Source: Armatimonadota bacterium
GTDB taxonomy: Bacteria > Armatimonadota > UBA5829 > DSUL01
DNA: 64,000 bases
NCBI GenBank assembly: GCA_025998755.1
Contig: AP024674.1
Location: 876,467 to 940,466, forward strand
Direction: 5' to 3'
The stretch's first letter is position 1; each line of letters begins with the position of its first letter. Under the pieces are notes generated by a model. That model saw only the letters and a program-made list of their open reading frames with translations, did not search any database and was not told the DNA's origin. Both the position numbers and the translations under genes were made by a program. Below, in pieces: positions 33,473 to 64,000 of the stretch.

Positions 33473-33502
33473 TTGCCGGAGAGAAACTAAATCGGCAATA
33501 AT
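33473..33502 (+). promoter_or_regulatory. candidate sigma70-type promoter for sbtA
   Basis: TTGCCG (33473-33478), 18-nt spacer, AATAAT (33497-33502), about 45 nt upstream of sbtA start. Confidence 0.25.
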
Positions 33503-33548
33503 TCTGCAGGCTGTCCGGCGCGATTCACATAACCGGAGCGGGATACTC

Positions 33549-34484: not shown

Positions 34485-34496
34485 GAAGGATTATCA

Positions 34497-34799
34497 GTGA
34501 GCACATTCCAGGCCAAACTTGTCACAATCATCACCGAGGCTCTTTTGGAAGAGGAGCTGACGCAGCGCCTTGTGGAGCTTGGGGCCACAGGCTACACCAT
34601 CTCGGATACGCGAGGGAGGGGGCATCGGGGCATCCGAGACGCCGGTTGGGAGCACGGCGCAAATATCCGCGTGGAGGTTCTCTGCGAGGAAGAGGTGGCC
34701 CGGCGCATCGCGGCGTTCCTTGTTGAGAACTATTACAGAGACTATGCAATGGTCGTTTTCATAGACACTGTGGAGGTTCTCCGTGAAAACCGTTTCTGA
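34497..34799 (+). CDS. sbtB: PII-like signalling protein SbtB
   Basis: 100-aa PII fold signature ([39 protein letters not shown]); GTG start 12 nt after sbtA stop. Confidence 0.75.
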
Positions 34800-44695: not shown

Positions 44696-44863
44696 TCAGT
44701 GTTGGAAAAGCTTCGGGAAGCGCGCCGTGGTCAGCTACAACGTTCGCGGCGCGCCTCCCGGGAAGATCGGCGAGTTATTCGCCGGAACAGCAGAAGCAGA
44801 CCTTCCGGAGCGTTGCAGCGCTCAGGGAGCTGCAAGTCTCAACGAGACAAGGAGGAAAGACAG

Positions 44864-45628
44864 ATGGGTAAGTGGTTCTGGCTCTGCTCGCTGGCACTGG
44901 TCCTTGGTGTCAGTTGCGCGGCGAACGCTTACGGGCCGGTCAGCTCCATTGATTCGGCCAAGGTCTATCAGTACGTGTGGCAGGACGATCCGGACTCCAC
45001 TCTGACGGTGGTGAACAACTATCCGTCCTATATCAGCTTCCGCGATGAGAACCTGGACGGCGACGGTCAGGGCGGGGAGTATGCCAACCGGCACGTCTGG
45101 AGGTTCTCCGCGGACGGTGGGTCAACTCCTTTCGAGTTCGGCAACACCACCTATTTCGAGTACTTCGTGGACGTGAAGGTGCAGGGCGACCCCACGACGG
45201 GGAAGCATCACGAAGCGGGCATCTTCTTCGACTATCGAGGCTGGGACGGCGTTCTGATGGTGAAGACCAACGGAGAGATCGCCGCCTTCGGCTATGTCCT
45301 TCCGTTTTATGCCTTCTTGGATCCGTACACCCCCGGCGACTGGATCCGTATCGGGGTGAAGTATTTCCAGGATCCCGGAGACGGCAAGAACAAGATCCGG
45401 TATTACGCGGGCTCCGCGCAGAGCCCCGCTCTGGCATTCGGAAACCTGGAGGGGGGCATCATTGACGGAACGACCATCGGGGGCTACGGACAGTTCCAGA
45501 TCGCTCCCGGGGTCCAGTCCAACTTCGGCATGGCGGAGTGGGGCAACATTCACATTGTGCCGGAACCGGCGTCGCTTCTGGTGCTGGCCGCCGGCGTGGC
45601 AGGCATGGCCCTGCGCCGCAGGCGCTAG
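44864..45628 (+). CDS. PEP-CTERM sorting domain protein (exosortase substrate)
   Basis: Signal peptide (WFWLCSLALVLGVSCAANA) and C-terminal VPEPASLLVLAAGVAGMALRRRR (PEP motif, TM helix, Arg cluster); aaggagg RBS. Confidence 0.7.
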   Translation: MGKWFWLCSLALVLGVSCAANAYGPVSSIDSAKVYQYVWQDDPDSTLTVVNNYPSYISFRDENLDGDGQGGEYANRHVWRFSADGGSTPFEFGNTTYFEYFVDVKVQGDPTTGKHHEAGIFFDYRGWDGVLMVKTNGEIAAFGYVLPFYAFLDPYTPGDWIRIGVKYFQDPGDGKNKIRYYAGSAQSPALAFGNLEGGIIDGTTIGGYGQFQIAPGVQSNFGMAEWGNIHIVPEPASLLVLAAGVAGMALRRRR

Positions 45629-48853: not shown

Positions 48854-51243
48854 ACGCCGCGGTCGCGGGGAGGTTGAGTGCAGCCGGGCGGACCCGCTTC
48901 GGTCATTTCTCGGAAGACGGCAGGGAATTCGTCATCCGCCGGCCAGACACTCCGCGGCCCTGGGTGAACGTTCTGTGCAACGACGATCCGGGATACGGGT
49001 GCATTTGGAGCCAGGCGGGAGGTGGTTATAGCTGGCTGGTCAACGCGGAGTTGAACCGGATCACCTTCTGGCAGCAGGACCTGATCCGGGATGACCGTGG
49101 GCGTTTTATCTATCTGCAGGATGCCCGGACCGGCGAGCTCTGGTCGGCCGGGTACCAGCCTGTCCGGCGGAAGCCCGAAGCCTTCGAATGCCGCCATGGG
49201 GCGGGCTACTCCGTCCTTAGCTCCCAGAACTCGGGCGTTCTCAGCCGGTTGACGGTCTTTGTGCCGCCGGCAGCGCCGCTGGAGGTCTGGCTGCTGGAGG
49301 TTGCAAACTTCTCGGGAGCCCCGCGCGATATCCTGGTTACCAGCTATCTGGAATGGTGCCTGGGCACAGCGCACGACACTCACCGGGAGTTCCATCGCAT
49401 CTTCATAGAAACGGAGTTCATCCGAGAACGCAGCGCCATCTTGGCGCGCAAGCGTCTGTGGGCCATCCCAAACGCCCTGGGCCAGGGATGGAACCGCAAC
49501 TGGGAGGGAACGGCATTTCACGCTTGCTCCCTACCCGTCGCCGCGTTCGAGTGCGACCGGGAGGTGTTTGTCGGGAGATACGGTTCTCTGGAATCGCCTG
49601 CCGCTTTGACTAACGGGCGGATGGCGGGGACCAGCGGACGATGGGGGGATCCCATCGCATCCCTTCAGGCCCCCCTCCGCTTGGGACCGGGTGAGTCGGC
49701 GGAGTTGGTCTTCGTTCTGGGCGCAGCCAATAGCGACGCAGTTGCGTTGTCTCTGGCGGAGCAGTACTGCAACGTCAAGCGTGCGGCCGAGGCGCTCCGC
49801 GAAACTCAGCTATGGTGGAGAAACCGTCTGGATGGCTACTCGGCCGAGACCCCGGACCCGGGACTGAATGCTCTGCTTAATACTTGGCTCCGCTATCAGG
49901 CCATGGCGGGGCGCCTCTGGGGGCGCAGCGGATACTATCAACCGGGCGGGGCATACGGCTTCCGTGATCAGCTACAAGACAGCCTGGTCTTCCTGCCGAC
50001 AGAGCCGGATCGGACCCGCCGTCAGATCCTGCTGCACGCGGCACACCAGTTCTCTGCCGGGCACGTGTTCCACTGGTGGCAGCCGATCGCCGAGTCCGGC
50101 GCGCACAGCAGGTTTTCAGACGATCTCCTCTGGCTACCGTTTGCGGTGCTGGCCTATATCCGGGAGACCGGCGACACGGCCATCCTGAATTTTCAAGCGC
50201 CTTTTGTGGACGGCCCTTCGGATACCATCCGGAACCACTGCGAGCGCGCGCTCGATCTGGCCCTGTCCCGAAGGAGTCCCCGTGGCCTGCCGCTCATGGG
50301 CGAGGGGGACTGGAACGATGGCCTTTCGGCGGTCGGCTGGGAGGGTAAAGGCGAATCGGTATGGGTGGGACATTTTCTGTGCTATCTCCTTCCGCGCTGG
50401 GCGGAGCTGGCCAGGACCGTGGGTGACGGCGAGCGCGCGGCACAGTACCTGCAGGCGGCCCAAGACCTGCAGGCTGCCATCAACAGGTGGGCCTGGGACG
50501 GCCAGTGGTATTTCCGGGCGACCTGCGACGATGGGACGGTGATCGGCGGCAGTGCGTGCAATGAAGGCCAGATATTCCTGAACGCTCAAACATGGTCGAT
50601 CATCGCCGGGGTCTGCCCTCCCGAGCGCCGTAGGCAACTTATGCGGACGGTCCGGGACCGGCTCTATACGGCAGCCGGGCCGGTGCTGCTCCGTCCGGCA
50701 TACACCGTGCCGGATGAACGGATTGGATACCTCACCCGTTACGCTCCCGGGGTGCGGGAGAACGGGGGTGTGTATCTCCACGCGGCAACGTGGGCGATCT
50801 GGGCCGAGTGCCTGCTCGGCCGCGCAGAGCAAGCCTGGAGACTTGTTCAGAGCATCTCTCCTTGCATTCGTGCACTGGACGCTGAACTGTACCGCGCCGA
50901 GCCATACGTAACGCCCGGGAACATCGATGGCCCGGACTCGCCGCACTTCGGGCGCGGGGGGTGGACGTGGTACACCGGATCGGCCGCCTGGCTGTTCCGG
51001 GTGGTTGCGGAGTGGTTGCTGGGAGTCCGTCCCGCCAGGGAAGGACTGCGAGTTGCCCCCTGCATCCCTGAGGACTGGGACGGTTTTCGGGTGTACCGTC
51101 GCTTCCGTGGAGCGGGCTACCAGATCGCTGTTTCCAGAAATGGTGAGGGGGGGAAGCTTATGGTGGACGGCCGCCCTGTTGCAGGGGACATTGTGCCAGC
51201 ATTCCACGACGGGAAAGACCATCAGGTCGAACTCCTGTTGTAG
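48850..51243 (+). CDS. glycoside hydrolase family 94 phosphorylase (cellobiose/oligoglucan phosphorylase type)
   Basis: N-terminus FGHFSEDGREFVIRRPDTPRPWVNVLCND typical of GH94; 797 aa; start overlaps LacI stop. Confidence 0.8.
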   Translation: MNAAVAGRLSAAGRTRFGHFSEDGREFVIRRPDTPRPWVNVLCNDDPGYGCIWSQAGGGYSWLVNAELNRITFWQQDLIRDDRGRFIYLQDARTGELWSAGYQPVRRKPEAFECRHGAGYSVLSSQNSGVLSRLTVFVPPAAPLEVWLLEVANFSGAPRDILVTSYLEWCLGTAHDTHREFHRIFIETEFIRERSAILARKRLWAIPNALGQGWNRNWEGTAFHACSLPVAAFECDREVFVGRYGSLESPAALTNGRMAGTSGRWGDPIASLQAPLRLGPGESAELVFVLGAANSDAVALSLAEQYCNVKRAAEALRETQLWWRNRLDGYSAETPDPGLNALLNTWLRYQAMAGRLWGRSGYYQPGGAYGFRDQLQDSLVFLPTEPDRTRRQILLHAAHQFSAGHVFHWWQPIAESGAHSRFSDDLLWLPFAVLAYIRETGDTAILNFQAPFVDGPSDTIRNHCERALDLALSRRSPRGLPLMGEGDWNDGLSAVGWEGKGESVWVGHFLCYLLPRWAELARTVGDGERAAQYLQAAQDLQAAINRWAWDGQWYFRATCDDGTVIGGSACNEGQIFLNAQTWSIIAGVCPPERRRQLMRTVRDRLYTAAGPVLLRPAYTVPDERIGYLTRYAPGVRENGGVYLHAATWAIWAECLLGRAEQAWRLVQSISPCIRALDAELYRAEPYVTPGNIDGPDSPHFGRGGWTWYTGSAAWLFRVVAEWLLGVRPAREGLRVAPCIPEDWDGFRVYRRFRGAGYQIAVSRNGEGGKLMVDGRPVAGDIVPAFHDGKDHQVELLL

Positions 51244-51288
51244 CTACAGCGCGCCCCTGATGCGGAGTTGAGAAACGTGTCGGTTCTA

Positions 51289-51318
51289 TTGACGGGGCTT
51301 CCGCCTTCGCCCTATAAT
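51289..51318 (+). promoter_or_regulatory. near-consensus sigma70 promoter
   Basis: TTGACG (51289-51294), 18-nt spacer, TATAAT (51313-51318); about 55 nt upstream of the 51377 start with gggaggagaagggg RBS. Confidence 0.45.
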
Positions 51319-51376
51319 CTCGCCGCCGGCTGCGGCCCAAAGGCTGCGATTGAGACCGGGAGGAGAAGGGGCTGAA

Positions 51377-52075
51377 ATGAACCTTAAGACTGCGAAGCGC
51401 GCAGGGCTGAGCCTGGCGCTGCTCATCCTCGTATGCGAAGCTGCTGTGGCATACAGCATCGTGAACGTGCCCACTGCCAACCAGGCGGCTTTGCGGGAAG
51501 TTAACCTTGCCTACTACAGCATGTCTGTGGACAGGCTGCCGGTCACGCACAAGGACATCATCATTATCTACTCCACGGTAGCGCCGAACCTCGAGGTGGA
51601 GTACTTCCACATCAATATCAACAAGGGGGCTCCCTCGCAGAATCTGGTGAACGCCAGCTACAGGTTGGTGAGCGAAACGGCGCAGATCCCGGACGTAGTG
51701 GTGGGCGCCAAGAATATCTTCGAGGACGACCACTCGCCCAATCCCGATGAGCAGAAGCGCTCCTATTACATCGCCACCGCAAAGACCCTGAACCCGCCGA
51801 AGCCGGGAGCCGCCTGGCAGCCCGTGGTGCGTCTGCACGTGAACTACGGCACCCGGGAGCACAGGGGACTGTTCGGTGGTGTCCAGATCGCGGTCACGCC
51901 GCAGCTGGGGATCGCGGCAATGAAGTTCTCCAGCTCACCCTATGTGGACACCTTTTTCGGCAACTCGATGGAATATGCCGTCGTTTACTCGCTCGGGAAA
52001 GGGCGTCCCACGCTGAAGGCGGGCACTCTGGGCCGCCACGAATGGGTGGGACTGGATTACAGCATCTTCTTCTGA
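51377..52075 (+). CDS. hypothetical exported protein, possible outer-membrane beta-barrel
   Basis: Signal peptide (LSLALLILVCEAAVA), alternating beta-strand-like pattern, C-terminal aromatic residues (YSIFF). Confidence 0.5.
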   Translation: MNLKTAKRAGLSLALLILVCEAAVAYSIVNVPTANQAALREVNLAYYSMSVDRLPVTHKDIIIIYSTVAPNLEVEYFHININKGAPSQNLVNASYRLVSETAQIPDVVVGAKNIFEDDHSPNPDEQKRSYYIATAKTLNPPKPGAAWQPVVRLHVNYGTREHRGLFGGVQIAVTPQLGIAAMKFSSSPYVDTFFGNSMEYAVVYSLGKGRPTLKAGTLGRHEWVGLDYSIFF

Positions 52076-52172
52076 AGTAGCTGTCTCTTGCACCCTGGCT
52101 CCGCGAAACAGCCACCTTGCCTTCCGGGAGGCTTGCGCGGATCCATTTGTTCCCGGGAAAGGATCTTCTGGA

Positions 52173-53735
52173 GTGAGTTGTCCGGACTTGCGCATTGCGG
52201 CGGCTTTGCTGATCGCCGCAGCAGTTCCCGTGGTTCTCCCGCTACCAGTGACGGCTGACGTGAGGACCGCGGCGCTGTTCTCCGACGGGGCCGTGCTTCA
52301 GAGGCAGCGGCCCGTTCCGGTGTGGGGATGGGGCGACGAGGGTGAGAATGTTACCGTCCACTTCAACGGACAGCAAAAATCAACAACCGTCCGGGGAGGC
52401 AGGTGGATGGTTCGGCTGGATCCGATGGAGGCGGGAGGTCCGTTTACCCTTACGATTCGCGGCCGCAACACCGTGGAAGTGCGGGATGTGCTGGTGGGCG
52501 AGGTCTGGGTGTGCAGCGGGCAGTCGAACATGCAGTGGCCCATGAAGCTGTCTGACATGCCGGAGCCGGATACCATCCAGAAGTCCGCAGACCCGCAAAT
52601 GCGCCTGTTTACCGTGCCTCGGCGCGCAGCGGACACGCCGCAGTCCGATGTGCAGTCGCGTTGGGAACCTTGCGATCCCTCCACGGTGCCAGATTTCTCT
52701 GCCGTTGGCTATTTCTTCGGACGAATGTTGAGAAAAGAGCTTGGTGTGCCGGTTGGCCTTATAAGTACTAACTACGGGGGCACCCCTGCCCAGGCGTGGA
52801 CAAGTTGTCCGGTGCTTCGGTTCGATCCGCTTCTCCGCAACCTGCTGGAACGCCAAGAGAAGGCTGTCGCCGAATATCCTGCCAGGCTGGCCGAGTGGCG
52901 CAGGGTGATGGATGCGCATCGGCAGGAGGTGGAGAAGGCCCGACAGGAGGGCCGCGAGCCCCCGCGTCCGCCCGCTCAGCCGCAGAATCCGGCAGAGTCT
53001 CCGCAGAGGCCCTGTGGTCTTTACAACGCGATGATCGCACCCCTCATCCCCTATGCCATCCGGGGCGTCATTTGGTATCAGGGCGAATCCAACGCGGGAG
53101 AAGCGTGGCTGTACCGCAGGCTGTTTCCGGCGATGATCCGCAACTGGCGCGCCAACTGGGGACAGGGAGACTTTCCGTTCCTGTTCGTGCAACTTGCTCC
53201 CTATACCAAGATCAAGCCGGAGCCCGGCGACAGTAAATGGGCGGAGCTCCGGGAGGCCCAGCTTCTGACCGCTCTAAACGTGCCGAACACGGCGATGGCG
53301 GTCATCACGGATCTTGGTGACGAGGACGATATTCATCCTAAGCGCAAGGCGCCCGTCGGAGAGCGACTGGCCCTCGCCGCGCTTGCGAAGGCTTACGGGC
53401 GGAACGTGGAGTATTCCGGGCCCGTATACCGGACAATGCAGACCGAAGGAAGCCGCGTGCGGCTAAGTTTCGACCACGCGGAGGGGGGCCTAGTGGTCCA
53501 CGGTGACCGCCTGACCGGGTTTACCATCGCCGGAGCGGACGGTCGCTTTGTGAATGCGCAAGCGCGTGTGGAAGGCAACCAGGTCATCGTGTGGAGCCCA
53601 CAGGTCCCCAGACCGGCCGCCGTGCGCTTCGGGTGGGCGGATTATCCTGTTGTGAATCTCTACAACAGGGCCGGTCTTCCCGCCTCACCGTTCCGGACGG
53701 ATGACTTCTTGATGGTGACTGGGCCGCGCAGCTAG
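52173..53735 (+). CDS. sialate O-acetylesterase-like carbohydrate esterase (SASA domain)
   Basis: Signal peptide; motifs LFSDGAVLQRQRPVPVWGWG, WVCSGQSNMQWPM, VIWYQGESNAGEAW. Confidence 0.75.
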   Translation: MSCPDLRIAAALLIAAAVPVVLPLPVTADVRTAALFSDGAVLQRQRPVPVWGWGDEGENVTVHFNGQQKSTTVRGGRWMVRLDPMEAGGPFTLTIRGRNTVEVRDVLVGEVWVCSGQSNMQWPMKLSDMPEPDTIQKSADPQMRLFTVPRRAADTPQSDVQSRWEPCDPSTVPDFSAVGYFFGRMLRKELGVPVGLISTNYGGTPAQAWTSCPVLRFDPLLRNLLERQEKAVAEYPARLAEWRRVMDAHRQEVEKARQEGREPPRPPAQPQNPAESPQRPCGLYNAMIAPLIPYAIRGVIWYQGESNAGEAWLYRRLFPAMIRNWRANWGQGDFPFLFVQLAPYTKIKPEPGDSKWAELREAQLLTALNVPNTAMAVITDLGDEDDIHPKRKAPVGERLALAALAKAYGRNVEYSGPVYRTMQTEGSRVRLSFDHAEGGLVVHGDRLTGFTIAGADGRFVNAQARVEGNQVIVWSPQVPRPAAVRFGWADYPVVNLYNRAGLPASPFRTDDFLMVTGPRS

Positions 53736-53799
53736 GCCGGCATCTGTGCGGCCGCCGGACACACAGTCTGGCGGCCGCTCCGTCTTTCCGCCGGTGTCC

Positions 53800-54501
53800 T
53801 CACGGAAGATGACGGGTGGTGGGGCAGCGCCGCCACGCGTCCAGCCTCCTGAAGCCCTCGGCATAATCCACTCCGCAAGCCAGACCCCGGAAGCGTCCCT
53901 GCACGCGGATCATATCCAGGATGTCAATCCCGTCGTGGTCCTTCAGCCACCGGACCTGACTCTGATGGCAGTTCATCATAGCGAGCTTATCTTCGATGAC
54001 TTCCGTGATGTCCACGTATTCCGTCGGAATGAACGCCGCGCCGGCCAGGCTGTCCATATAGTAAAGGGGCGGGATCCCGTCCGTCCGCTCGTGAGCGGTC
54101 TCCACGTGGGGCAGGGAGGCCATGAATGAGCTCACGAAAACCAGTTCCGAAACGATCCGGTGATCCAGATGATAGTCGTCGGGGTTGTGCGTGATGACCA
54201 CATCGGGACGCGCCTGTCGCATCATATCAATGAACATCATCCGGGTCGCGTGGTCGTGGTAAATGAACTCGTCGTGGATATCCAGCCAGATTAGCTCTGC
54301 CCCGCAGACTCTGGCGGATGCTTCGGCTTCCTTTTTGCGTATCTCTTTCAACTCCGGTGGGGGAATGACCATGTGACCCTGCTCGCCGTTAGTGGCGACG
54401 CAGATGACCACCTGGTGTCCCTCCCGGGCGTAGCGCAGCAACGTTCCGGCGCACAGGATCTCGATATCATCGGGGTGGGCGCCCACAGCCAGTATTCTCA
54501 A
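53800..54501 (-). CDS. PIG-L/LmbE family N-acetylglucosaminyl deacetylase
   Basis: N-terminus MRILAVGAHPDDIEILCAGT and HNPDDYHLDH zinc-site motif. Confidence 0.8.
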   Translation of the reverse strand: MRILAVGAHPDDIEILCAGTLLRYAREGHQVVICVATNGEQGHMVIPPPELKEIRKKEAEASARVCGAELIWLDIHDEFIYHDHATRMMFIDMMRQARPDVVITHNPDDYHLDHRIVSELVFVSSFMASLPHVETAHERTDGIPPLYYMDSLAGAAFIPTEYVDITEVIEDKLAMMNCHQSQVRWLKDHDGIDILDMIRVQGRFRGLACGVDYAEGFRRLDAWRRCPTTRHLP

Positions 54502-54578
54502 CGTCGTGCATCCTCCTTCTTGTGTCTCTCGTGCCAGCCCGCAATGCCAGCCAATAGCTCAGGCCGGCACGGGAAAAC

Positions 54579-55559
54579 CTAGTCGTAGATACCCTCGCGT
54601 CGCCACACGTCCAGAATGAGCTCATAGCGAGACAGGCGCATTCCAGTGTAGATGCAGTTGCTGGTGGAGAAAATGTAGCCGTAGCCGGGCATTCCGTGGC
54701 GCAGGGCGTAACGGGCGGACTCGACACAGTCTTCGTCCGTTCCTGTGTCCAGCAGTCCGCAGTTCACGTTGCCAATCAGGCACAACCGTTGACCGTAAAG
54801 CCGCTTCACCTCCGCGATGTCCACTCCCGCCTGGGGATCAAGGGAATGCAGCGCGTGAGGACCGGCTTCCACGAGTTGATCAATGATGGGCATGATATTC
54901 CCGTCGGTGTGCTTTATGGTGTAGAACCCCATCTCCCTATAGCCCATGATGATCTGCTTCAGATACGGCGCCACAAACTCCGCGAACTGATCCGGACTGA
55001 GGAAGGGACCCGAATTCAGGCAGTAGTCCGAACAGAGGGCGAAGCCGTCCAAGCAGCCGTGTTCCCGCAGAACACGTGCTCGCTCCAGTGCCGCGTCCAC
55101 CATTCTCGAAGCCTCGTCCTTGATGCCTGCAGGATCGTCCGCAATCCGGTAGCTGAATTCCACCATCCGATCCCCCGGCGGTATGCCGTAGGTAGCGTCG
55201 CCATGGAGCATCAGGAAATACTTTAGACCGGACCGTTGACGGATGACATCCAGGAGCCGCCGCGTTTCATCAAGGTCGCCAGGGTTCGGGTGCACGAAGA
55301 TCGCATCGTGCTGAAAGCGCTCAGCAGTGGCGATGAAGACGTCGGCCATATCCTGTCGATGTAGCTGGCGCTCCTTCTCCTGCATCTGATCCCACTGCCC
55401 GTAAGCCCGGTGCAGGGGATGCACCTTCCCGAACGCTTCCATGGTGAGGAAAAAGACCAGCTCGAAATGCGGCACGCGCCCCTTGAGAGGCCTGCGCTCT
55501 AGCGCGGCAATGAAACGTTCACGCGGCATAAAGTCCTGGCCGACCGTTGTGTCCTGCAA
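54579..55559 (-). CDS. uroporphyrinogen decarboxylase (URO-D)-like family protein
   Basis: URO-D-like TIM-barrel sequence features across 326 aa; sits inside a sugar-type operon, so not assigned to heme synthesis. Confidence 0.6.
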   Translation of the reverse strand: MQDTTVGQDFMPRERFIAALERRPLKGRVPHFELVFFLTMEAFGKVHPLHRAYGQWDQMQEKERQLHRQDMADVFIATAERFQHDAIFVHPNPGDLDETRRLLDVIRQRSGLKYFLMLHGDATYGIPPGDRMVEFSYRIADDPAGIKDEASRMVDAALERARVLREHGCLDGFALCSDYCLNSGPFLSPDQFAEFVAPYLKQIIMGYREMGFYTIKHTDGNIMPIIDQLVEAGPHALHSLDPQAGVDIAEVKRLYGQRLCLIGNVNCGLLDTGTDEDCVESARYALRHGMPGYGYIFSTSNCIYTGMRLSRYELILDVWRREGIYD

Positions 55560-55586
55560 TTGATCTCCTTGGTTGCGACAAACCGC

Positions 55587-56324
55587 CTAGAGATAATGGA
55601 TCCTGTCGCGGTACTGCTCCAGCAGACGCGCGTTGTATTCGTCGCCTCCGTCCAGATTGGCGCTCCTGAAGACTGGCGGCTCAATGCCCCTCGCAAGGCA
55701 GATCTCCACCACCTCGACTGTGAGCGCATTCACCAGGGCGATCCCAGTGAGCGAAGAGAGGGGACCAATCCGCTGAGGGCATCCGGGAACCTCCACGGCC
55801 GCGTCTCCGACAGGCGCTCCGTTGTCCAGGACAACGTCACACAGGTCCGGCAGCTTGAGTCCCGAGGAGTCGCGACTTGATACCGCCGACGAATATGCAA
55901 CCGAGGTCACTCCGATGACCTTAATCTGCTGCTCGCGGGCTGCGCGCGCCATATCCACAACCACCGGGTTCCGGCCGGATGTGGAGGCGATGATCAGGAC
56001 ATCTCCGGCCGACGCAGGCGATGAGAGGAGCAGCTCCCGCCCGAGTCCCGGAATCCTTTCGAATCGCGAGGTGGCCGTCACGGGTCGGACGGAAAGGTTC
56101 ATTCCGTGAGGATAGATAGGGTTGACCAGCATCAATCCGCCGGTCCGATACACCATCTCTTCCGCAATCATGAACGAGTGGCTGGCCCCGAATGCGAACA
56201 GGCTGTTTCCCTGGGCAATAGCATCAGCAATGATGCAGGCAGCCTTGTGAAGATTGTCTTTCTGCCCTGTCCGAATCTTCTGCAAAGCTCCGGCGGCCGC
56301 GTCAAAATAGCTCTCCATCGGCAT
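55587..56324 (-). CDS. SIS-domain sugar-phosphate isomerase-like protein
   Basis: SIS fold features (NSLFAFGASHS, DVLIIASTSGRNPVVVDMARAAREQQIKVIGVTS). Confidence 0.65.
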   Translation of the reverse strand: MPMESYFDAAAGALQKIRTGQKDNLHKAACIIADAIAQGNSLFAFGASHSFMIAEEMVYRTGGLMLVNPIYPHGMNLSVRPVTATSRFERIPGLGRELLLSSPASAGDVLIIASTSGRNPVVVDMARAAREQQIKVIGVTSVAYSSAVSSRDSSGLKLPDLCDVVLDNGAPVGDAAVEVPGCPQRIGPLSSLTGIALVNALTVEVVEICLARGIEPPVFRSANLDGGDEYNARLLEQYRDRIHYL

Positions 56325-56328
56325 AAGG

Positions 56329-57066
56329 TCAGTAGCCCCTCTCGTTGTAGCGCTGAAGGCACTGCTCGTAATGGGCCGGACCCTCAGGACGGTTCACGCT
56401 TACGAAGACCGTGGGCGGGTCGCCCTCTGCCGCCATCTTCTCCATCACCGTCCCCCAGAGCATCCAGCCCAGGACGGTCATCGCCACGCCGGAGAGAGGA
56501 ATGGCTTTGACCTCCAGTCCCGGAACGTCCACGCAGGCATCCCCGTAAGGAACGCCGATATCCAGCACAATATCCGCAGCATCGCCCAGCTTCTTGCCGG
56601 ACGGATGCTGGGACTCTACGCGCGACGAATACTCCTTTGAGACCAGGGCAATAACGCTGACACCCTTCTTCTGGCACGCCAGCGCCATCTCCACGGCCTG
56701 ACGGCTCCTGCCAGATACCGAGGACAGCAACATCACGTCGCCTGCCTTCAAAGGGCTCTGTGAGACCGCAAAGCGGACGCGAGCCAGATCGGAGTCAGGG
56801 TCAGAAGAACGTTGCTGTCGGATGCAGTCGGGCAGCGGGGCCTGGAGGCTTATCGCAAAGGAGAACCGCTGGACCGCCGCCAACCCGCCTGCTCGATTGA
56901 TGAAATCTCCTTCCGTCCCGTGCCCGATGTTATGGCAGAATACGGCGCCGCCGGAACGGAGCGCCTGGACCACCAGATCCGCGGCGCGGTTTACCTGCTC
57001 CATCTGGGTGGATCCAAGGAAATCCAGAAGCTCCCGCACCCGATCCAGATACATCAGAGCCACCAT
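56329..57066 (-). CDS. SIS-domain sugar-phosphate isomerase-like protein (paralog)
   Basis: Paralogous to 55587..56324 (GAVFCHNIGHG, DVMLLSSVSGRSRQAVEMALACQKKGVSVIALVS); ATG 57066 preceded by aggggga. Confidence 0.65.
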   Translation of the reverse strand: MVALMYLDRVRELLDFLGSTQMEQVNRAADLVVQALRSGGAVFCHNIGHGTEGDFINRAGGLAAVQRFSFAISLQAPLPDCIRQQRSSDPDSDLARVRFAVSQSPLKAGDVMLLSSVSGRSRQAVEMALACQKKGVSVIALVSKEYSSRVESQHPSGKKLGDAADIVLDIGVPYGDACVDVPGLEVKAIPLSGVAMTVLGWMLWGTVMEKMAAEGDPPTVFVSVNRPEGPAHYEQCLQRYNERGY

Positions 57067-57070
57067 AGCG

Positions 57071-58084
57071 TCATCCCCCTTGTGCCGCGGGCAGCGCTTC
57101 ACGAAAGAGCTCGCCAGCGGTATTGAGCAACCTGGCTCGCCGTGCGGGATAGTCTTCTACAGAGATCTCCCTGAGAATGACCAGCGCAGCCCCGATCACG
57201 GGTGGCTGTCTGACCTGCACGACCTCCAGAGCCGGAGCTTGCTCCGCGAGAACCGCCTTCACATGCTCAGCGTAAAGACGCGAGTTCGCCCCCACACCGC
57301 CCGACAGAGCCACCGTGCACGGCGTGGCGATCAGGCCGACGCTTTCGGCGGCGTCCCGGATGGTCTGGGCGAGATCGGCGGCTGCCGACTGGAGGATCCT
57401 CAGAGCGATGGAATCTCCCTTTTCGGCTTCCTGGTCCACGATGCGCGCCAGGGCCGCGATCTCCGCCCGGTCTCTGCGTTCCAGCGAATAATCCACAAGC
57501 CTCCACCCGGACTCCTCCGGCGATTCCCCGGTGCAGGCCCGGTAGACCGGCTCGGCCAGCGACGTGCGGCGCCTCTCCGACCACCCGGAGCAGGCTGCGG
57601 CCCTCATGGCCTCACGCCCGATCTGATAACCTCCCCCGTGGTCGCCCAGCTCCGGTCCAAGACCGTCCAGTAACACATCTCTCCCCTCAGGCGAACGCGC
57701 ATAGACCAACGCTCCAGTCCCCGCGATGGCCACGATTCCCCATTGCATTCCAGCCAACTCCATAGGGCAATCCTGCTCGCGGACCGCGTGCCACATCGTT
57801 TGAAAGGAGCCTTGCAACGGCTCGATGGGCGGGCCGAGATCGGGGGAAACGTTGTGGTGCAGGAACGCCGGCCTTGAATCCGCCAGGGCCTGTTTGACCG
57901 CACGCTCAAGACTGCGACGGCTACGTCCGGATCCGCTCACCCCCCGGCCACCTTCCGGGTCCTCTATTCCGCTTCGTCCCACAGCGATGGCCGTTCCGTC
58001 CAGCTGGCACAGCAGCGCATCACACTTGCTGCCTCCTCTATCCACTGCGAGGACAAACGTACCGATTTCAGGATGTGCCTTCAT
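57071..58084 (-). CDS. BadF/BadG/BcrA/BcrD-type ATPase (N-acetylglucosamine kinase-like)
   Basis: N-terminal phosphate-1 motif VLAVDRGGSKCDALL and ASKHA-fold features (VAIAGTG, TVALSGGVG). Confidence 0.75.
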   Translation of the reverse strand: MKAHPEIGTFVLAVDRGGSKCDALLCQLDGTAIAVGRSGIEDPEGGRGVSGSGRSRRSLERAVKQALADSRPAFLHHNVSPDLGPPIEPLQGSFQTMWHAVREQDCPMELAGMQWGIVAIAGTGALVYARSPEGRDVLLDGLGPELGDHGGGYQIGREAMRAAACSGWSERRRTSLAEPVYRACTGESPEESGWRLVDYSLERRDRAEIAALARIVDQEAEKGDSIALRILQSAAADLAQTIRDAAESVGLIATPCTVALSGGVGANSRLYAEHVKAVLAEQAPALEVVQVRQPPVIGAALVILREISVEDYPARRARLLNTAGELFREALPAAQGG

Positions 58085-58326
58085 GGACGCCTTTTCCCGC
58101 TGAGCCTAAAACTCGTTGACCGGACCGCCCCAGAGTTCGTCCCGGCGGCACTGCTCCTCCTGCTGCAGTTTGGCGTATCTGCCAGGCCCATTGTCAGGCA
58201 AGAACGCGCAAAACCTGAAAACTCCCGGCTTTTTGCCGTTACTTGGGAGGTAGCAGTGTGTTACAACACCTGTAAACCGAGTCCAGAACCAGCGAGAGGA
58301 ATGGGAAACCCTTGCCTTCTGCCAGA

Positions 58327-59106
58327 ATGATGTTTGAGATGACCGTCCGCGATGTGGAGGAAGGTCTGCGGCAGACGCAGACCATCATTGTCCCGGTCGG
58401 CATCCTGGAACAGCACGGCTACCACTTGCCCCTGAGTGTGGATATTCACAACGCTGTGGAACTTGCGCGGCGCGCATCCGAACGGACCGGCTGCTTCGTG
58501 GCCCCTCCCGTCCACTATAACTTTTCCGGGGGAAGCCTCCCCGGTACGATCAACATCAGCCCGCCGGTGTTCTCGCTGATGCTGATGGACATCCTGCAAA
58601 GCCTTGTGATGCAGGGGTTCCGCAGGATCCTTCTGCTTCTCGGGCACGCTGGCTCGGAAAGTCAGGCAGCGGCCCGAGACGCGGCCCATCATTTGCAGCG
58701 GCTGCGGCCACCGGTGCCGGGGCTGGTGATCTGCGTTGTTCCCTTCACGGAGCTATCTCCCACCATCCAGCAGGCGATGAACGATGGCGATTATCACGCG
58801 GGATTCTATGAGACATCCCTGATGCTCTACTGGAAGCCCGAGATGGTCCGCTTGGATCTGGCGGCGATGGATGAGCCGTCGGTAGCGGAGATGATGCGCC
58901 GGGATCCGGACGCTTATGCCATAGCAGAGAAACGGACGGCCAGCCCATTCGAAGTACCGCGGGTGTTTCAGGATCCGCGGATTAGGGTGGGGGTGATGGG
59001 GGACTACACCGGAGCCAGCGCCGAGGTGGGAGAAAAGATCGCGGGAGAATGCGTGGATGCGCTTGAATCCATCATCCGCCTGATGGAGGAGGGAGGGGTG
59101 GCATGA
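58327..59106 (+). CDS. creatininase-family amidohydrolase
   Basis: Motifs IIVPVGILEQHGYHLPLSVD and LLLLGHAGSES; ATG 58327 chosen (TTG 58312 possible). Confidence 0.75.
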   Translation: MMFEMTVRDVEEGLRQTQTIIVPVGILEQHGYHLPLSVDIHNAVELARRASERTGCFVAPPVHYNFSGGSLPGTINISPPVFSLMLMDILQSLVMQGFRRILLLLGHAGSESQAAARDAAHHLQRLRPPVPGLVICVVPFTELSPTIQQAMNDGDYHAGFYETSLMLYWKPEMVRLDLAAMDEPSVAEMMRRDPDAYAIAEKRTASPFEVPRVFQDPRIRVGVMGDYTGASAEVGEKIAGECVDALESIIRLMEEGGVA

Positions 59107-60149
59107 TCCGTTGGGGGATTATCGGGTGTGGAGGCATAGCGCGAAGGCGTGTGCTGCCTGCCAGGACGGACATGCGATCCACCCGCTTCGTCGCGGTAAT
59201 GGACGCAGATCCGGATGTGACCCGGGATGTCGCGGAGGAGACCGGTACGCGCGCCTGTTTCAGCTTGGAAGAGATCCTCGATGACCCAGAAATTCAGGCG
59301 GTCTACATCGCTACGCCGGTCCATCTTCACCATCCTCAGGCTCTATTGGCCGCCGTCAAAGGCAAGCACGTCCTGCTCGAGAAGCCTCTTGCGCTGAATG
59401 TGGAACAGGGTCGGGAAGTCGTGGAAACCTTCGAGCGCAAAGGCCTTCTGCTGATGGAAGGCTATATGATGAAGTTCCACTCTCTCAACGGACGGGCAGC
59501 AGAAATGGTTGCCCGCGGAGATCTGGGAAAACCCGTCTTCCTGCGCGCGCAGCTGACCTGCTGGTACCCTGAGATTCCGGGCGCCTGGAGGCAGGATCCC
59601 TCACTTGGCGGCGGAGGGGCACTGATGGACATGGCCACGCACCTTTTCGACCTGCTGGAGGAGATCTCTGGCTCCTCCATTGTGGAGGTGACAGCGCTAG
59701 TCGCCACTCAAACGTTCTCGTACCCCGTGGAGGATAGTTCCGTGACGCTGCTTGGTTTCCAGAATGGAGCCTTCGGGGTTGTGGAGGCTTTTTACAACAT
59801 TCCGGATGTGGCGGCTCAAGGGCGGTTAGAGGTCTACGGAACGCAAGGTTCGATCCTGGCAGAGGGAACGATCGGGCAGGATCCGGGGGGCTCAATGCAT
59901 GCTTTCCTGAGTCCGTCGGAAAAGGGGTACGACGCTCTTCAGCAACGCGCGCCGTCTGACCTGCGGCGGCAAGTCATCATCGCACCTCCCGTAAATATGT
60001 ACGCTGCCGAGTTCGATTACTTTTCCGAATGTATCGCCGACGGTCGCCCTCCAGCCAAAAGCTCCGGCAGGCAGGGGCTGCATATTCTGGAGGTGGCTCG
60101 CGCAGCGTATGAGAGCGCGCGCACGGGACGGGCTGTCTGTCTCAGTTGA
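59103..60149 (+). CDS. Gfo/Idh/MocA family oxidoreductase
   Basis: N-terminus MIRWGIIGCGGIARRRVLPA and EKPLALNVEQ motif; ATG overlaps upstream stop (ATGA). Confidence 0.8.
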   Translation: MIRWGIIGCGGIARRRVLPARTDMRSTRFVAVMDADPDVTRDVAEETGTRACFSLEEILDDPEIQAVYIATPVHLHHPQALLAAVKGKHVLLEKPLALNVEQGREVVETFERKGLLLMEGYMMKFHSLNGRAAEMVARGDLGKPVFLRAQLTCWYPEIPGAWRQDPSLGGGGALMDMATHLFDLLEEISGSSIVEVTALVATQTFSYPVEDSSVTLLGFQNGAFGVVEAFYNIPDVAAQGRLEVYGTQGSILAEGTIGQDPGGSMHAFLSPSEKGYDALQQRAPSDLRRQVIIAPPVNMYAAEFDYFSECIADGRPPAKSSGRQGLHILEVARAAYESARTGRAVCLS

Positions 60150-60165
60150 ACACAAAAGGAAGAAG

Positions 60166-60205
60166 CACACAAAAAACCGGCCGCACCGTCTAGATGCGGC
60201 CGGTT
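60166..60205 (-). terminator. rho-independent terminator (for the minus-strand Spy-like gene; possibly bidirectional)
   Basis: Hairpin ccggccgca (60177-60185) / tgcggccgg (60195-60203) with 9-nt loop; on the minus strand it is followed by TTTTTTGTGTG (plus 60166-60176). Confidence 0.55.
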
Positions 60206-60226
60206 CTCATAAGTTCTGATGCCGAG

Positions 60227-60967
60227 TTACGGGCTGGTCGGGCGAGACCATCCCTGCCACGCTCGTGCGCGCTGCTCGAACTGCCTACGCTGCTCCGGGG
60301 TGAACACGCTCATCACCTGCTCATGCGTCTGAGTTCGGATCTCCTGCACGCGGAGGGCCCTCTCCTGAGCCGTCAGGTTCGGATCAGCCATCACGGCAGC
60401 CACCTGCCGGGCGCCGTCCTGCCGGATCTGCCGGATCCGCTCCTGCTGCTCTGCTGTGAGCTGCACCCCGGGAACCAGGCCGGACATCCCATAACCGGCT
60501 CCCAACCAGGCAGCGCCCGGCCCGATGCCCCGGCCTGCTCCGCGGCCCATTCCAGCACCCCGTCCGAGGCCGGCACCGCAAGGACCGCGGCCTAGACCAA
60601 CACCGGGAGCTGCGCCCGGCCAGCGGCTCTGGAATTGCTGGCGCTGCTCAGGTGTCAGGACGTTCATCACCCGCTCATGACCCTCCTGACGCACCTTCGC
60701 AATCTCGGCGGCGATCTGCTCGGGCGTCAAGGAGCTGTCCCAGCGGATCTGCTGCACCCGCTGCATCGTCTCGGAGCGGATCTGGGCCACCTGCCGCTCC
60801 TGTTCCGGCGTCAGCTGCACACCGGGAACCAAACCGATGGCAGCTGCCCCCCGGCCGCCACCGCGCCCGGCGCCGCCGCGCCACCCCTGTGCATCGGCCT
60901 GAAGGGCCAATGACGCAACCATCGCGGCTGCCGCAAATACCATAAGAATGGTCGCAATTCTCGTCAT
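60227..60967 (-). CDS. periplasmic Spy/CpxP-like LTXXQ-motif protein (tandem duplicated)
   Basis: Signal peptide (ILMVFAAAAMVASLALQA); LTPEQ/LTAEQ motifs in two repeated modules separated by Gly/Arg-rich linker; ATG 60967 preceded by ggagga. Confidence 0.65.
   Translation of the reverse strand: MTRIATILMVFAAAAMVASLALQADAQGWRGGAGRGGGRGAAAIGLVPGVQLTPEQERQVAQIRSETMQRVQQIRWDSSLTPEQIAAEIAKVRQEGHERVMNVLTPEQRQQFQSRWPGAAPGVGLGRGPCGAGLGRGAGMGRGAGRGIGPGAAWLGAGYGMSGLVPGVQLTAEQQERIRQIRQDGARQVAAVMADPNLTAQERALRVQEIRTQTHEQVMSVFTPEQRRQFEQRARAWQGWSRPTSP
60287..60833. repeat. intragenic tandem duplication (~190 bp units, ~355 bp period) within the Spy-like gene
   Basis: Units ~60287-60480 and ~60641-60833 align visibly (ctgctc...gttcatcacc.gctcatg ... 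ctgcac.ccgggaacca). Confidence 0.5.
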
Positions 60968-61087
60968 CTCCGGTATCCTCCGCCTTTCGCTTACCGAACC
61001 ATCATGTGTCATCAGGTTTAGATGACTCACCTAAGCTGTGTCTTCACGGGATAAGACGACAGCCGCCTCGGTTTCATTCAATGTTTT

Positions 61088-62296
61088 TCAGGGGTCTACG
61101 TCTTGGAGCACTTCCGGCGGCAAAAGGTCCGTGGTGAGCAACCGAGCTTCGGGGTCGGCCAGCACGCACGCTCTCTCGATCACATTTTCCAGCTCCCGCA
61201 CATTGCCAGGCCACCGGTAGGCCGTCAGGGCATCCAGGAACTCCTGAGAAGCCCCCTCGATCTTGCGTCCTTCTTCAGGTGCGTATTTGCGGATAAAGTG
61301 GTCCACAAGCAGGGGAATGTCTTCCGTGCGCTCGCGGAGAGGAGGAAGGTCTATCTGGACTACCTTGAGCCGGAAGTAGAGGTCCTCGCGGAACTCTCCC
61401 TTCTCCACCAGCTTCGCCAGGTCCTGGTTCGTGGCTGTGATCAACCTGACATCCACGCGGATGGTCTTGTTGCCCCCCACGCGCTCGAACTCACGCTCCT
61501 GAAGCACCCGCAGCAGCTTGCGCTGCACCTCCATCGGAATGTCACCGATCTCGTCTAGGAAAAGCGTCCCTTTGTGCGCCAGCTCAAAGCGTCCAATCTT
61601 CTGGGACAGCGCACCGGTGAAGGCACCTTTCTCGTGACCGAAAAGCTCGCTCTCCAGCAGGTTCTCGGACAGAGCGATGCACGCAACCGCCACAAAGTTC
61701 TCCGACGCGCGAGGGCTGTTGAAGTGAAGAGCCCGGGCGATCAGCTCCTTACCGGTTCCACTCTCCCCGCGGATGAGGACGGAAGCCCGGGACTGGGCCA
61801 CCCGTTCCACCAGGTCGAACACCTCCCGCATCTTTGGGGACTGTCCCACGATGTTGTCAAAACGGTAAGACTGCTTCAGTTTTTCACGGACGCCCGTGTC
61901 CGGAGACTCCAGTTCCCGGCGCTCGATGGCCTTTCGCACCAGAACCTTCAAGTCGTCTATGTCGAAAGGCTTGGTGACGTAGTCGAAGGCGCCCAGGCGC
62001 ATCGCATCCACAGCCGTGCGGATGGTCCCGTGAGCGGTAATCATCACAACGGAGACACGGGGGTTGGTCTCCCGGACAACCTCCAGAAGCTCCACACCGT
62101 TGATGTCCGGCATGATCAGGTCGCTGATCAGAACATCCGTGTCCCGGTTGGCCTTCAACAGCTCCAGCGCCTTTCTGCCGTTCTCGGCCGTGAATACCTG
62201 ATAGCCCTCCCGCTGGAACGTGGCTTCCAGCACGCGACGGATGTTCGGCTCGTCGTCCGCGATCAGAATGGTTCCGGCTTTGGCGTTCTCCGGCAA
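61088..62296 (-). CDS. sigma54-dependent response regulator (receiver + AAA+ domain, no C-terminal HTH)
   Basis: Receiver [15 protein letters not shown]...[12 protein letters not shown]; AAA+ motifs [30 protein letters not shown]; only ~33 aa follow GNVRELEN; TTG 62296 chosen because the ORF-track N-terminus overlaps the kinase gene. Confidence 0.7.
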
Positions 62297-62391
62297 GTGT
62301 TTTCCCCCAAGGTCAGACTCGCCGCCGATGTGCGGCGTGGTTATCCTCCGGCCAACATTATCGGCAAAGCGTGCCCCTGCTGCGCAGCGTC

Positions 62392-63990
62392 TCACGCCCG
62401 TTCCATCAGATCGGGCGGCGCAGGCTCGTGCTGCTGAAGCAAAGACGGCGCTGGTCCCCTGACAGGAAGGTGTATCCGGAAGAGCGATCCTTCTCCCTCG
62501 GCAGACTCTACGGCGATATGCCCTCCGTGGTTCTGGATGATCTTCTGGACCACTGGCAGGCCGAGCCCGGTGCCTTTCACTTTTGTCGTGAAGAACGGTG
62601 TGAAAATCCGCTCCAGGCGGTCCGACGGGATTCCGCAGCCCGTGTCGCGCACCCACAGCTCCACGCTCTCCGGCCAATCGGCCGAAGGACGCGCCCCGAG
62701 TTCCAGTGTGCCACCGTCCGGCATCGCCTGGATGGCGTTCAGGATCAGGTTCAGAAGCACCTGCTCTAGCTGCTTGACATCCGCCAGGAAGAGGGGTGTT
62801 CCTTCCTGGACGGCTACGGCGCAATCAATGCCTGCCTGTTCCAGTTGCGCGGCCACGCGCGAGCGCCCTCGCTCAAGGAGCTCAAGCGCCCTGACCTCCG
62901 ACACTTCCAGCTTCAAGGGACGAGCGAAGTCCAGGAACTCGCTTGCGATCCGGTTGAGCCCATCCACCTCCTCGATGATGATGTTGAGGAACTCCCGGTC
63001 GGCGGGGTCGGTAAGCTCGGAGTTGAGGAACTGCGCCGCTCCTTTAATGGATGAAAGTGGGTTGCGCAGCTCGTGCGCAATGCTTGCCGCAAGCTGACCG
63101 ATGGCGGCCAGCTCTCCCATGCGGCGTACCTCTTCCTGCATCCGCACTTGCCGGGTCATGTCCTCGAACACGATAACGAGTCCCAGCGGCTCGCCATCCG
63201 TATTTCTGAGCTGCGAAGAACTTAGTGAAATGTGAAGCTGCGATTCCGGCCCGCTCTTCAGGGTGAGGACGATGCCCCGCTCTGGTGGCGCGCCGTCCAG
63301 AACGCGCGCTAGGGACGCCTCCAGAGTGGCCAGGTCCGAAGGAGCTATCTCGAAGCGCTCCAGCACCTCGGTGAACGTGACTCCCAAAGTAGCGGAAGTT
63401 TCGATTCCCAGGATCTCCTCCGCCGCACGGTTCCAACTCACAACCCGACCCGAGCTGTCCAGCGTCACCACTCCTGCCGGCACGCTGGACAGGATGTTAT
63501 CGGTGTAGGTGGTCAGTGCAGTCAAAGCTTCCAGGCCGCGGTAGATGGATGCGGCCTGCGACGCAATGACTGAGAGCACCCGCAGATGGTCTTCCGTATA
63601 GACGTTGGGCGAGCGGCTGTGGACACTGAGGACCCCCACGACTTCGTCTTGCACCATCAGGGGAATGGCCATGACGGACCGCAGCAGCGGGTCGCGCGCC
63701 ACCTCCGCGAATCGCGCATCCTTCTGGATGTCCGGCAGGACCACTGCTTTGCGCTCGTGCACCGCCCAGCGCGCCAGACGGTAACCCCCTGAGCTGTCCC
63801 CGGCCTGTCCCGTGCGCATCTGCAGAGCGCCGGACTCCGGATCCACCGTCCAGATGAAGCACTCGTCGCATTCCACCAGATCCCGCACGATGGCCACGAT
63901 GCTAGCAAGCGCTTCGTCAAGGTTGGCGGCGGTGCTGATTCGCTGGGAAAGCTCATACAACGCGGAGAGCTCCAGCACCTTCTCGCGCAT
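62392..63990 (-). CDS. cytoplasmic sensor histidine kinase (GAF-PAS-HisKA-HATPase)
   Basis: H-box [18 protein letters not shown] boxes [14 protein letters not shown] and [17 protein letters not shown]; no TM segments seen; start within 10 nt of window end. Confidence 0.8.
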
Positions 63991-64000
63991 GCGGCGTTCA

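Follow-up and report, generated by a model that had tools for sequence, protein, structure and literature searches.

The gene pair considered here lies at one end of a stretch of 64,000 nucleotides (the window) from an Armatimonadota bacterium (GenBank assembly GCA_025998755.1, contig AP024674.1, positions 876,467 to 940,466 of the forward strand). It comprises, on the minus strand, a gene for a sensor histidine kinase, which runs off the end of the window, and a gene for a response regulator that resembles the activators of sigma-54. The pair had been picked out from the sequence alone (the sequence-only reading) as a two-component system of the sigma-54 type in which the activator has no DNA-binding domain; this description is supported here by an absence of the C-terminal helix–turn–helix (HTH) that is both genuine and conserved. 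In window coordinates, the features of the pair are as follows.

62392–64000, minus strand: 3' part of the sensor histidine kinase gene (last 535 codons and stop of a gene of 1088 codons), with the fourth GAF, the PAS, the HisKA and the HATPase_c domains (Pfam).
62297–62391, minus strand: spacer of 95 bp between kinase and regulator genes, read from the sequence.
61088–62296, minus strand: response regulator/sigma-54 activator gene, 402 amino acids, TTG start at 62296, TGA stop at 61088–61090.
61925–62272, minus strand: receiver (REC) domain, residues 9–124 (Pfam Response_reg, E 3e-31).
61352–61852, minus strand: sigma-54 interaction AAA+ domain, residues 149–315 (Pfam Sigma54_activat, PF00158, E 4e-73).
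61745–61768, minus strand: Walker A motif GESGTGKE, residues 177–184.
61610–61627, minus strand: GAFTGA loop, residues 224–229.
61550–61555, minus strand: Walker B residues D248–E249.
61100–61336, minus strand: AAA+ lid, residues 321–399 (Pfam AAA_lid_14, profile positions 1–77 of 87).
60968–61087, minus strand: spacer of exactly 120 bp after the regulator stop, the next ATG being at 60967.

The regulator most likely begins at the TTG codon at 62296, six bases ahead of which stands a Shine–Dalgarno-like GGGGGA (62303–62308). An alternative in-frame GTG at 62395 would give a protein of 435 amino acids with 33 additional, non-conserved residues, overlapping the kinase stop and leaving the C-terminus the same; the Logan gene call takes the upstream GTG start, and a relative at 99% identity (P0001) has 402 residues. 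The receiver and the AAA+ domain with its GAFTGA loop, both named in the sequence-only reading, were recovered by Pfam. In two alignments (A1 and A2, of 16 and 66 sequences) D14, D15, D59, T87 and K109 of the receiver are invariant, the codon of the phospho-acceptor Asp59 lying at 62120–62122, and so are the Walker A and Walker B motifs and several arginines; in relatives at 47–99% identity the GAFTGA loop keeps F226, T227, G228 and A229 without exception and G224 almost always. The catalytic and sigma-54-contact motifs of the regulator are intact, and the Walker motifs, the GAFTGA loop and the predicted fold place it in the sigma-54 activator class (PF00158, clade-6 AAA+). The closest solved structure is the receiver plus ATPase construct of Aquifex NtrC1 (E 1e-108, residues 9–381 aligned). 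An AlphaFold2 model (mean predicted local distance difference test score, pLDDT, of 78) shows a predicted receiver, a helical linker, the ATPase with its lid, and then a short tail only. In a Foldseek search the two-domain unit found its best matches in NtrC1 (1ny5 on top), NtrC4, NtrX and LuxO, and the ATPase alone matched the AAA+ domains of ZraR and FleQ (TM 0.91, root-mean-square deviation ~2 Å). The linker consensus of the family, ERRxLxxENxxLRxQL, is similar to the coiled-coil linkers seen in the negatively regulated class; in the window's own sub-clade the linker contains Pro, and pLDDT is below 50 at linker residues 129–137. No cut-off for a named NtrC-family equivalog in NCBIfam, GlrR and LuxO included, was reached by the regulator (bits against cut-off: AtoC 496/714, NtrC 463/559, PrsR 405/503, ZraR 374/760, FlgR 344/750), and all of these matches stop at profile position ~370–393 of 441–469, ahead of the HTH part. 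The regulator and CtcC both score best against AtoC-type models.

HTH_8 (PF02954) was not detected in the regulator by Pfam, which returned Response_reg, Sigma54_activat and AAA_lid_14 only; three HTH-bearing relatives served as positive controls, and in them Pfam does find HTH_8 (E 1e-13 to 1e-18). The GNVRELEN motif, which starts at 61207, falls within the lid, and the protein ends 31 residues beyond it (the sequence-only reading, which had pointed out both the early end and the missing Fis-type HTH, had put the tail at about 33) and 9 residues past TPDLLP, the last motif conserved in the lid. The 120 bp that follow the stop, counted exactly in that reading, have no coding capacity for an HTH and hold no GG-N10-GC sigma-54 motif.

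It could be argued that a sequencing frameshift or a recent truncation took off the HTH, leaving an artefact or a pseudogene, for which the short length of the protein, and nothing else, would speak. Against this, contig L089, from an independent assembly, matches window positions 50227–64000 (13,774 bp) at 100% identity, and the 120 bp after the regulator stop are followed by a gene with its own signal peptide. Furthermore, a hidden Markov model built from 57 HTH tails of related activators and run on all six frames of the window found no HTH remnant in any of them (the top score, at E 0.13, fell in an unrelated open reading frame), and on this result a frameshift or split gene was rejected. 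The nearest 120 protein clusters of the window regulator (392–431 amino acids, 63–99% identity), of the Fimbriimonadaceae-type orthologue (386–411 amino acids) and of the Chthonomonadales-type orthologue (347–429 amino acids) contain PF02954 in 0/120 cases each, and the position of the stop varies by only a few residues across these 360 clusters from three Armatimonadota lineages. A further comparison drew on the best 80 loci from species-representative genomes, a sample biased towards orthologues, in which the Armatimonadota-type proteins all stop 30–37 residues past GNVREL, and the relatives from other phyla, at 45–55% identity, all have 78–132 residues past it and an obvious Fis-type HTH. 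The last alignment column common to all, HTH-bearing relatives included, is Pro393 (of TPDLLP), beyond which the Armatimonadota proteins have 9–15 residues more and the others ~65. Because of the identical independent contig, the lack of a six-frame remnant, the 360 HTH-less clusters and the tail lengths at the 80 loci, we conclude that the absence of the HTH is genuine and conserved and not an error; the frameshift that the sequence-only reading had named as its refutation is excluded, and the probability of an artefact or pseudogene is negligible.

That reading had also held that HTH-less enhancer-binding proteins are known but uncommon. The class is indeed recognized in reviews, as group 5 of the bacterial enhancer-binding proteins (a response-regulator regulatory domain and no D domain, as in FlgR and CtcC), also called type Ic, and 'uncommon' is a fair word, since only 2/150 of the best 50%-identity cluster representatives from a library of 1.8 billion proteins are shorter than 420 amino acids. 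The HTH-less architecture is thus uncommon in general, yet fixed across at least three Armatimonadota lineages. In public databases such regulators are named 'sigma-54-dependent Fis family transcriptional regulator' (NCBI) or 'DNA-binding NtrC family response regulator' (JGI), a systematic annotation error that deserves to be flagged, with 'Fis family' and 'DNA-binding' attached to proteins that have no such domain. Fimbriimonadaceae-type tail-less regulators are also found on contigs binned in metagenome-assembled genomes (MAGs) labelled 'Archangium gephyra' and 'Methyloversatilis discipulorum' (L028 and L037); the L028 regulator is nearly identical to a protein of Armatimonadetes bacterium Uphvl-Ar2, and these bin labels probably reflect contamination.

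The partner kinase had been described in the sequence-only reading as a soluble GAF-PAS sensor starting at the ATG at 63990. That start does not hold: the frame is still open at base 64000, the residues ERR precede the ATG, residue 1 of the resulting fragment aligns to residue 638 of a 1183-residue orthologue, and in L089, which extends 6,967 bp past the window, the complete kinase has 1088 amino acids and the ATG at 63990 encodes its internal Met557. The complete protein has four GAF stretches, a PAS domain (720–839), HisKA (854–913, with His862) and HATPase (960–1067), so that 'GAF-PAS' was incomplete, whereas 'soluble' stands: no transmembrane segment is found in the full 1088 residues, as the maximum 19-residue hydropathy is 1.52. 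The number of GAF domains in orthologous kinases is one (the Fimbriimonadaceae type, 503 amino acids), two or four. In 14/16 of the distinct related loci whose neighbourhood was read, the gene directly upstream of the regulator encodes a PAS-HisKA-HATPase kinase that contains GAF. What is conserved is therefore the combination of a cytoplasmic GAF(n)-PAS kinase with a tail-less activator, amid flanking genes that differ between loci. In one sub-lineage (L003/L004, 8562–9869) kinase and regulator are separated by a B12-binding radical-SAM gene, and a cyclic di-AMP synthase operon (cdaA-ybbR-glmM) follows the regulator. The kinase–regulator spacer is called as 94 bp in a 99%-identical contig (L005). 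Past the window end, a region of 480 bp (L089, 4830–5309) separates the kinase gene from a divergent epimerase-ileS-dksA-lspA-lgt cluster and contains, ~300 nt upstream of the kinase start, the extended -10-like element TGATATAAT; the gene order is the same in a 76%-identical locus (L001).

One positive result on the link of this system to sigma-54 comes from two Chthonomonadales loci, where a sigma-54 consensus lies 24–31 nt past the regulator stop, on the coding strand, upstream of an orthologous gene for a REC-PilZ protein. In L092 (9249–9264) it reads TGGCACGGATGTTGCA, that is TGGCAC-N5-TTGCA (11/11), and in L017 (11258–11273) it reads TGGCACAAAATATGCA, that is TGGCAC-N5-ATGCA (10/11). The two regulators are ~71% identical and the remainder of the spacer is unconserved; the chance expectation is ~0.001–0.002 sites per such spacer, from a background of ~1.1e-5 per strand-position. 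The two sites are good sequence evidence for the use of a sigma-54 promoter in the phylum, beside this activator, that does not extend to the window's lineage. The gene they precede in L092 and L017, for a REC-PilZN-PilZ (YcgR-like) protein, is a candidate for direct control by the activator, and a connection with cyclic di-GMP signalling is hinted at.

Other promoter-like sequences were seen near orthologous regulators. A 9/11 site, TGGAACCAGTATTGCC, lies in the 270-bp kinase–regulator spacer of L095 (3931–3946; also L096, 3700–3715), 55 nt before the regulator start, a possible sign that the regulator controls its own gene in that lineage; L091 and L093 do not share the site. In the latter two loci (L091, 9246–9275; L093, ~5490–5520) a shared sigma-70-like TTGACA-N17-TAGAAT (TTGACAGAAT...TGGTAGAAT) precedes a gene for a large FlgD_ig-domain protein after the regulator. 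In L015 (2488–2503), 7.5 kb from the regulator, a perfect TGGCAC-N5-TTGCA also lies 52 nt upstream of a gene whose product is a DUF6777 protein bearing a PEP-CTERM signal; one perfect site per 286 kb arises by chance in ~25% of simulations, and we regard this site as anecdotal because the motif count over 286 kb is not above expectation. No sigma-54 promoter was found upstream of the kinase in L089 or its orthologues.

Several observations weigh against sigma-54 control by the window's regulator. rpoN was not found in the DNA scanned for it, the 64-kb window and the Armatimonadota-type related loci. A consensus scan of the window allowing up to 2 mismatches gave 57 matches against 67 expected, in a scan scored with gene context no intergenic site of the window rose above 8/11, no convincing sigma-54 promoter was seen in the extra 7 kb of L089, and 286 kb of Armatimonadota DNA held 5 matches against 6.2 expected under a first-order Markov model. 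The site past the regulator is confined to the two Chthonomonadales loci, being absent where the downstream gene differs, and no REC-PilZ orthologue occurs in 71 kb of the window's own lineage. Finally, the genome paper of Fimbriimonas ginsengisoli names only rpoD, rpoE and fliA as sigma genes; MAGs of the Fimbriimonadaceae carry the tail-less activator.

The last of these points, a paper on one Armatimonadota genome that does not list rpoN, would suit a lineage without sigma-54, in which the AAA+ protein acts independently of that factor on some other substrate. The near-complete invariance of the GAFTGA loop at 47–99% identity and the conserved sigma-54 promoter beside the Chthonomonadales orthologue argue against such a reading. 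To our knowledge, the only role known for the GAFTGA loop is contact with sigma-54, which also counts against it. In addition, full-length RpoN (AID-CBD-DBD) is recorded in a 2025 survey for Chthonomonas calidirosea (CCALI_01002) and for Ca. Nitrosymbiomonas proteolyticus (NPRO_10960), both Armatimonadota. In PMC12316311, the opening part of the table of enhancer-binding protein counts has no entry for Chthonomonas or for the KEGG codes ccz and npy. Taken on these terms, we consider a sigma-54-independent role highly improbable.

Our current working hypothesis, to which we give a probability of about 0.7, is that the regulator is a phosphorylation-controlled, enhancer-independent activator of sigma-54 that acts from solution and is paired with a cytoplasmic kinase, a 'group 5' protein like CtcC and FlgR. 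Signals at the GAF and PAS domains would set the autophosphorylation of the kinase at His862, and the phosphoryl group would then be transferred to Asp59 of the regulator. Phospho-Asp59 may lift an inhibition of ring assembly by the receiver, of the NtrC1/DctD type and as in CtcC, a step suggested by a linker of near-equal length to that of NtrC1, by the family consensus linker and by the behaviour of CtcC. The GAFTGA loops of the ATPase ring would make contact with sigma-54 in closed promoter complexes, and the ring would so drive formation of the open complex. Since the Fis-type HTH is absent, the ring presumably engages the sigma-54 holoenzyme from solution with no tether to an upstream enhancer, as the architecture and the precedents of FlgR and CtcC suggest. 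We infer these steps beyond the domain identifications, as we do the presence of sigma-54 in this genome and its regulon.

The tail-less activator might instead act with a partner, in mixed rings with a separate DNA-binding protein or recruited by one, so that the choice of target would still depend on enhancers. There is a precedent in Cereibacter sphaeroides, where the HTH-less FleT depends on its HTH-bearing paralogue FleQ, and the Armatimonadota genomes are free-living and of several Mb (contigs of 2.6–6.1 Mb), unlike the reduced genomes of Chlamydia and Helicobacter. Neither the window nor 332 kb of related loci contained a second PF00158-type gene or an HTH of the kind found in enhancer-binding proteins, and no Armatimonadota-labelled HTH-bearing activator occurred among the best 80 genome loci, the latter a weak argument given the bias of that sample towards orthologues. 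We consider a partner of this kind unlikely and retain the enhancer-independent activator as our hypothesis. It is tempting to speculate that Armatimonadota have no sigma-54 activator other than the tail-less regulator, or that it is the ancestral one, which we hold to be possible but doubtful. If it were the sole activator, a single input through a cytoplasmic multi-GAF kinase would switch the entire sigma-54 regulon independently of enhancers; enhancer-less sigma-54 control would not be just a by-product of genome reduction in pathogens; and tractable natural promoters, such as that of the REC-PilZ gene in Chthonomonadales, would be available for the study of specificity without DNA tethering.

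Downstream of the regulator, the following features are found.

60227–60967, minus strand: gene for a secreted protein of 246 amino acids of the LTXXQ (Spy/CpxP/ZraP-like) type, with its own signal peptide (Pfam LTXXQ and Metal_resist; weak NCBIfam Spy/CpxP matches).
60171–60203, minus strand: intrinsic terminator, a GC-rich hairpin with an 11-bp core followed by a U6 run, starting 24 nt past the LTXXQ stop.

The folded terminator RNA has a predicted energy of -33.7 kcal/mol (z-score -4.6; equally stable shuffles, 0/200), and the LTXXQ gene is probably the last gene of the kinase–regulator transcription unit. The LTXXQ protein is itself an internal tandem duplication of two modules, each with a Gly/Arg-rich stretch (GRGGGRG... 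in one, GLGRGAGMGRGAGRG... in the other), the motif GLVPGVQLT(P/A)EQ and two more LTxxQ-like motifs. In E. coli the sigma-54 activator ZraR controls zraP, a gene of the LTXXQ family. The presence of such a gene 120 bp downstream on the same strand, together with the appearance of the ZraR and ZraS profiles among the NCBIfam matches, could thus suggest an envelope-stress module resembling ZraPSR, whose main job would be sigma-54 control of the adjacent LTXXQ gene. Those profile matches are, however, far under their cut-offs (ZraR 374 against 760, ZraS 232 against 479), the kinase has no transmembrane or periplasmic part, and no GG-N10-GC occurs in the 120-bp spacer ahead of the LTXXQ gene. Moreover, only relatives at 98% identity or more (L005, L009 and L089) have that gene next to the system, and all more distant orthologous loci lack it. 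A ZraPSR-type system was rejected for want of a membrane sensor kinase and of a sigma-54 motif before the LTXXQ gene, and we regard such a role as very unlikely.

Elsewhere in the window, on the plus strand, an SbtA/SbtB-like pair lies within 33493–34799, with a gene for an SbtA-like Na+/bicarbonate transporter at 33549–34484 and one for a P-II family protein of 100 amino acids at 34497–34799; a weak GG-N10-GC, CGGCAATAATTCTGCA (33493–33508), lies ~40 nt upstream of the SbtA-like gene and, at 8/11, is within chance. Also on the plus strand, the gene at 44699–45628 encodes a protein that carries at its C-terminus a PEP-CTERM sorting signal (VPEPASLLVLAAGVAGMALRRRR), and exosortase (EpsH/EpsI) genes were seen near the orthologous regulator in L006 and L007. 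An identity with PrsK/PrsR, the regulators of the PEP-CTERM box, was considered on account of such neighbours and rejected, as the NCBIfam PrsR score is 405 against a cut-off of 503.

We conclude that the regulator is an undescribed member, in at least three Armatimonadota lineages, of a known and uncommon class, and that it involves no new mechanism. Most work on activators that lack a DNA-binding domain has been done in Helicobacter/Campylobacter, Chlamydia and Cereibacter, and reviews treat them as a small special group; we found no paper linking Armatimonadota with sigma-54 activators. The known range of enhancer-independent sigma-54 control would in this way be extended to a free-living phylum, and candidate natural targets are supplied.

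Among characterized systems, the protein is like NtrC1 of Aquifex aeolicus (PDB 1NY5, 4L4U) and the DctD/NtrC4 type in its receiver–linker–ATPase arrangement, with a linker of near-equal length, but NtrC1 in its native form binds enhancers and has an HTH at its C-terminus, and the linker of the window's sub-clade contains Pro. FleT of Cereibacter sphaeroides is likewise a sigma-54 activator with no DNA-binding domain, yet it has no regulatory domain and works with FleQ, while the present protein has a complete receiver and its own kinase. As with ZraP-ZraS-ZraR of E. coli, a sigma-54 two-component system stands beside the gene for an LTXXQ-family periplasmic protein. ZraS is a membrane sensor, ZraR has an HTH, and zraP is divergently transcribed from a sigma-54 promoter of its own; none of these features was found at the window's locus.

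A closer parallel is offered by FlgS/FlgR of Helicobacter pylori, in which the activator is also a receiver and an AAA+ domain with no DNA-binding domain. The kinase FlgS, too, is cytoplasmic. Enhancer-independent activation by H. pylori FlgR has been shown experimentally, and in the epsilonproteobacterial FlgR the fifth residue, G, of GAFTGA is replaced by D. The present regulator differs from FlgR in its canonical GAFTGA, in its score against the FlgR model (344 against a cut-off of 750 bits) and in the lack of a flagellar gene context, and an identity with FlgR was rejected on the loop variant and the model score.

CtcB/CtcC of Chlamydia (annotated as AtoS/AtoC-like) is likewise a two-component pair in which the regulator consists of a receiver and a sigma-54 AAA+ domain with no DNA-binding domain. 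CtcB also has no membrane anchor. The differences are that the kinase of the window has four GAF domains, and that CtcC belongs to a reduced, obligate intracellular genome, whereas Armatimonadota are free-living, with contigs of up to 6 Mb. It is plausible that the HTH was lost here independently of other losses, the nearest HTH-bearing relatives, at ~55% identity, coming from many phyla. In CtcC of Chlamydia trachomatis, which is under the control of phosphorylation and has no DNA-binding domain, the ATPase domain alone activates sigma-54 promoters and the receiver is inhibitory. With a REC domain that has the invariant D59, an adjoining kinase and no DNA-binding domain at its C-terminus, the regulator described here stands with CtcC and FlgR in group 5, or type Ic, of the enhancer-binding proteins.

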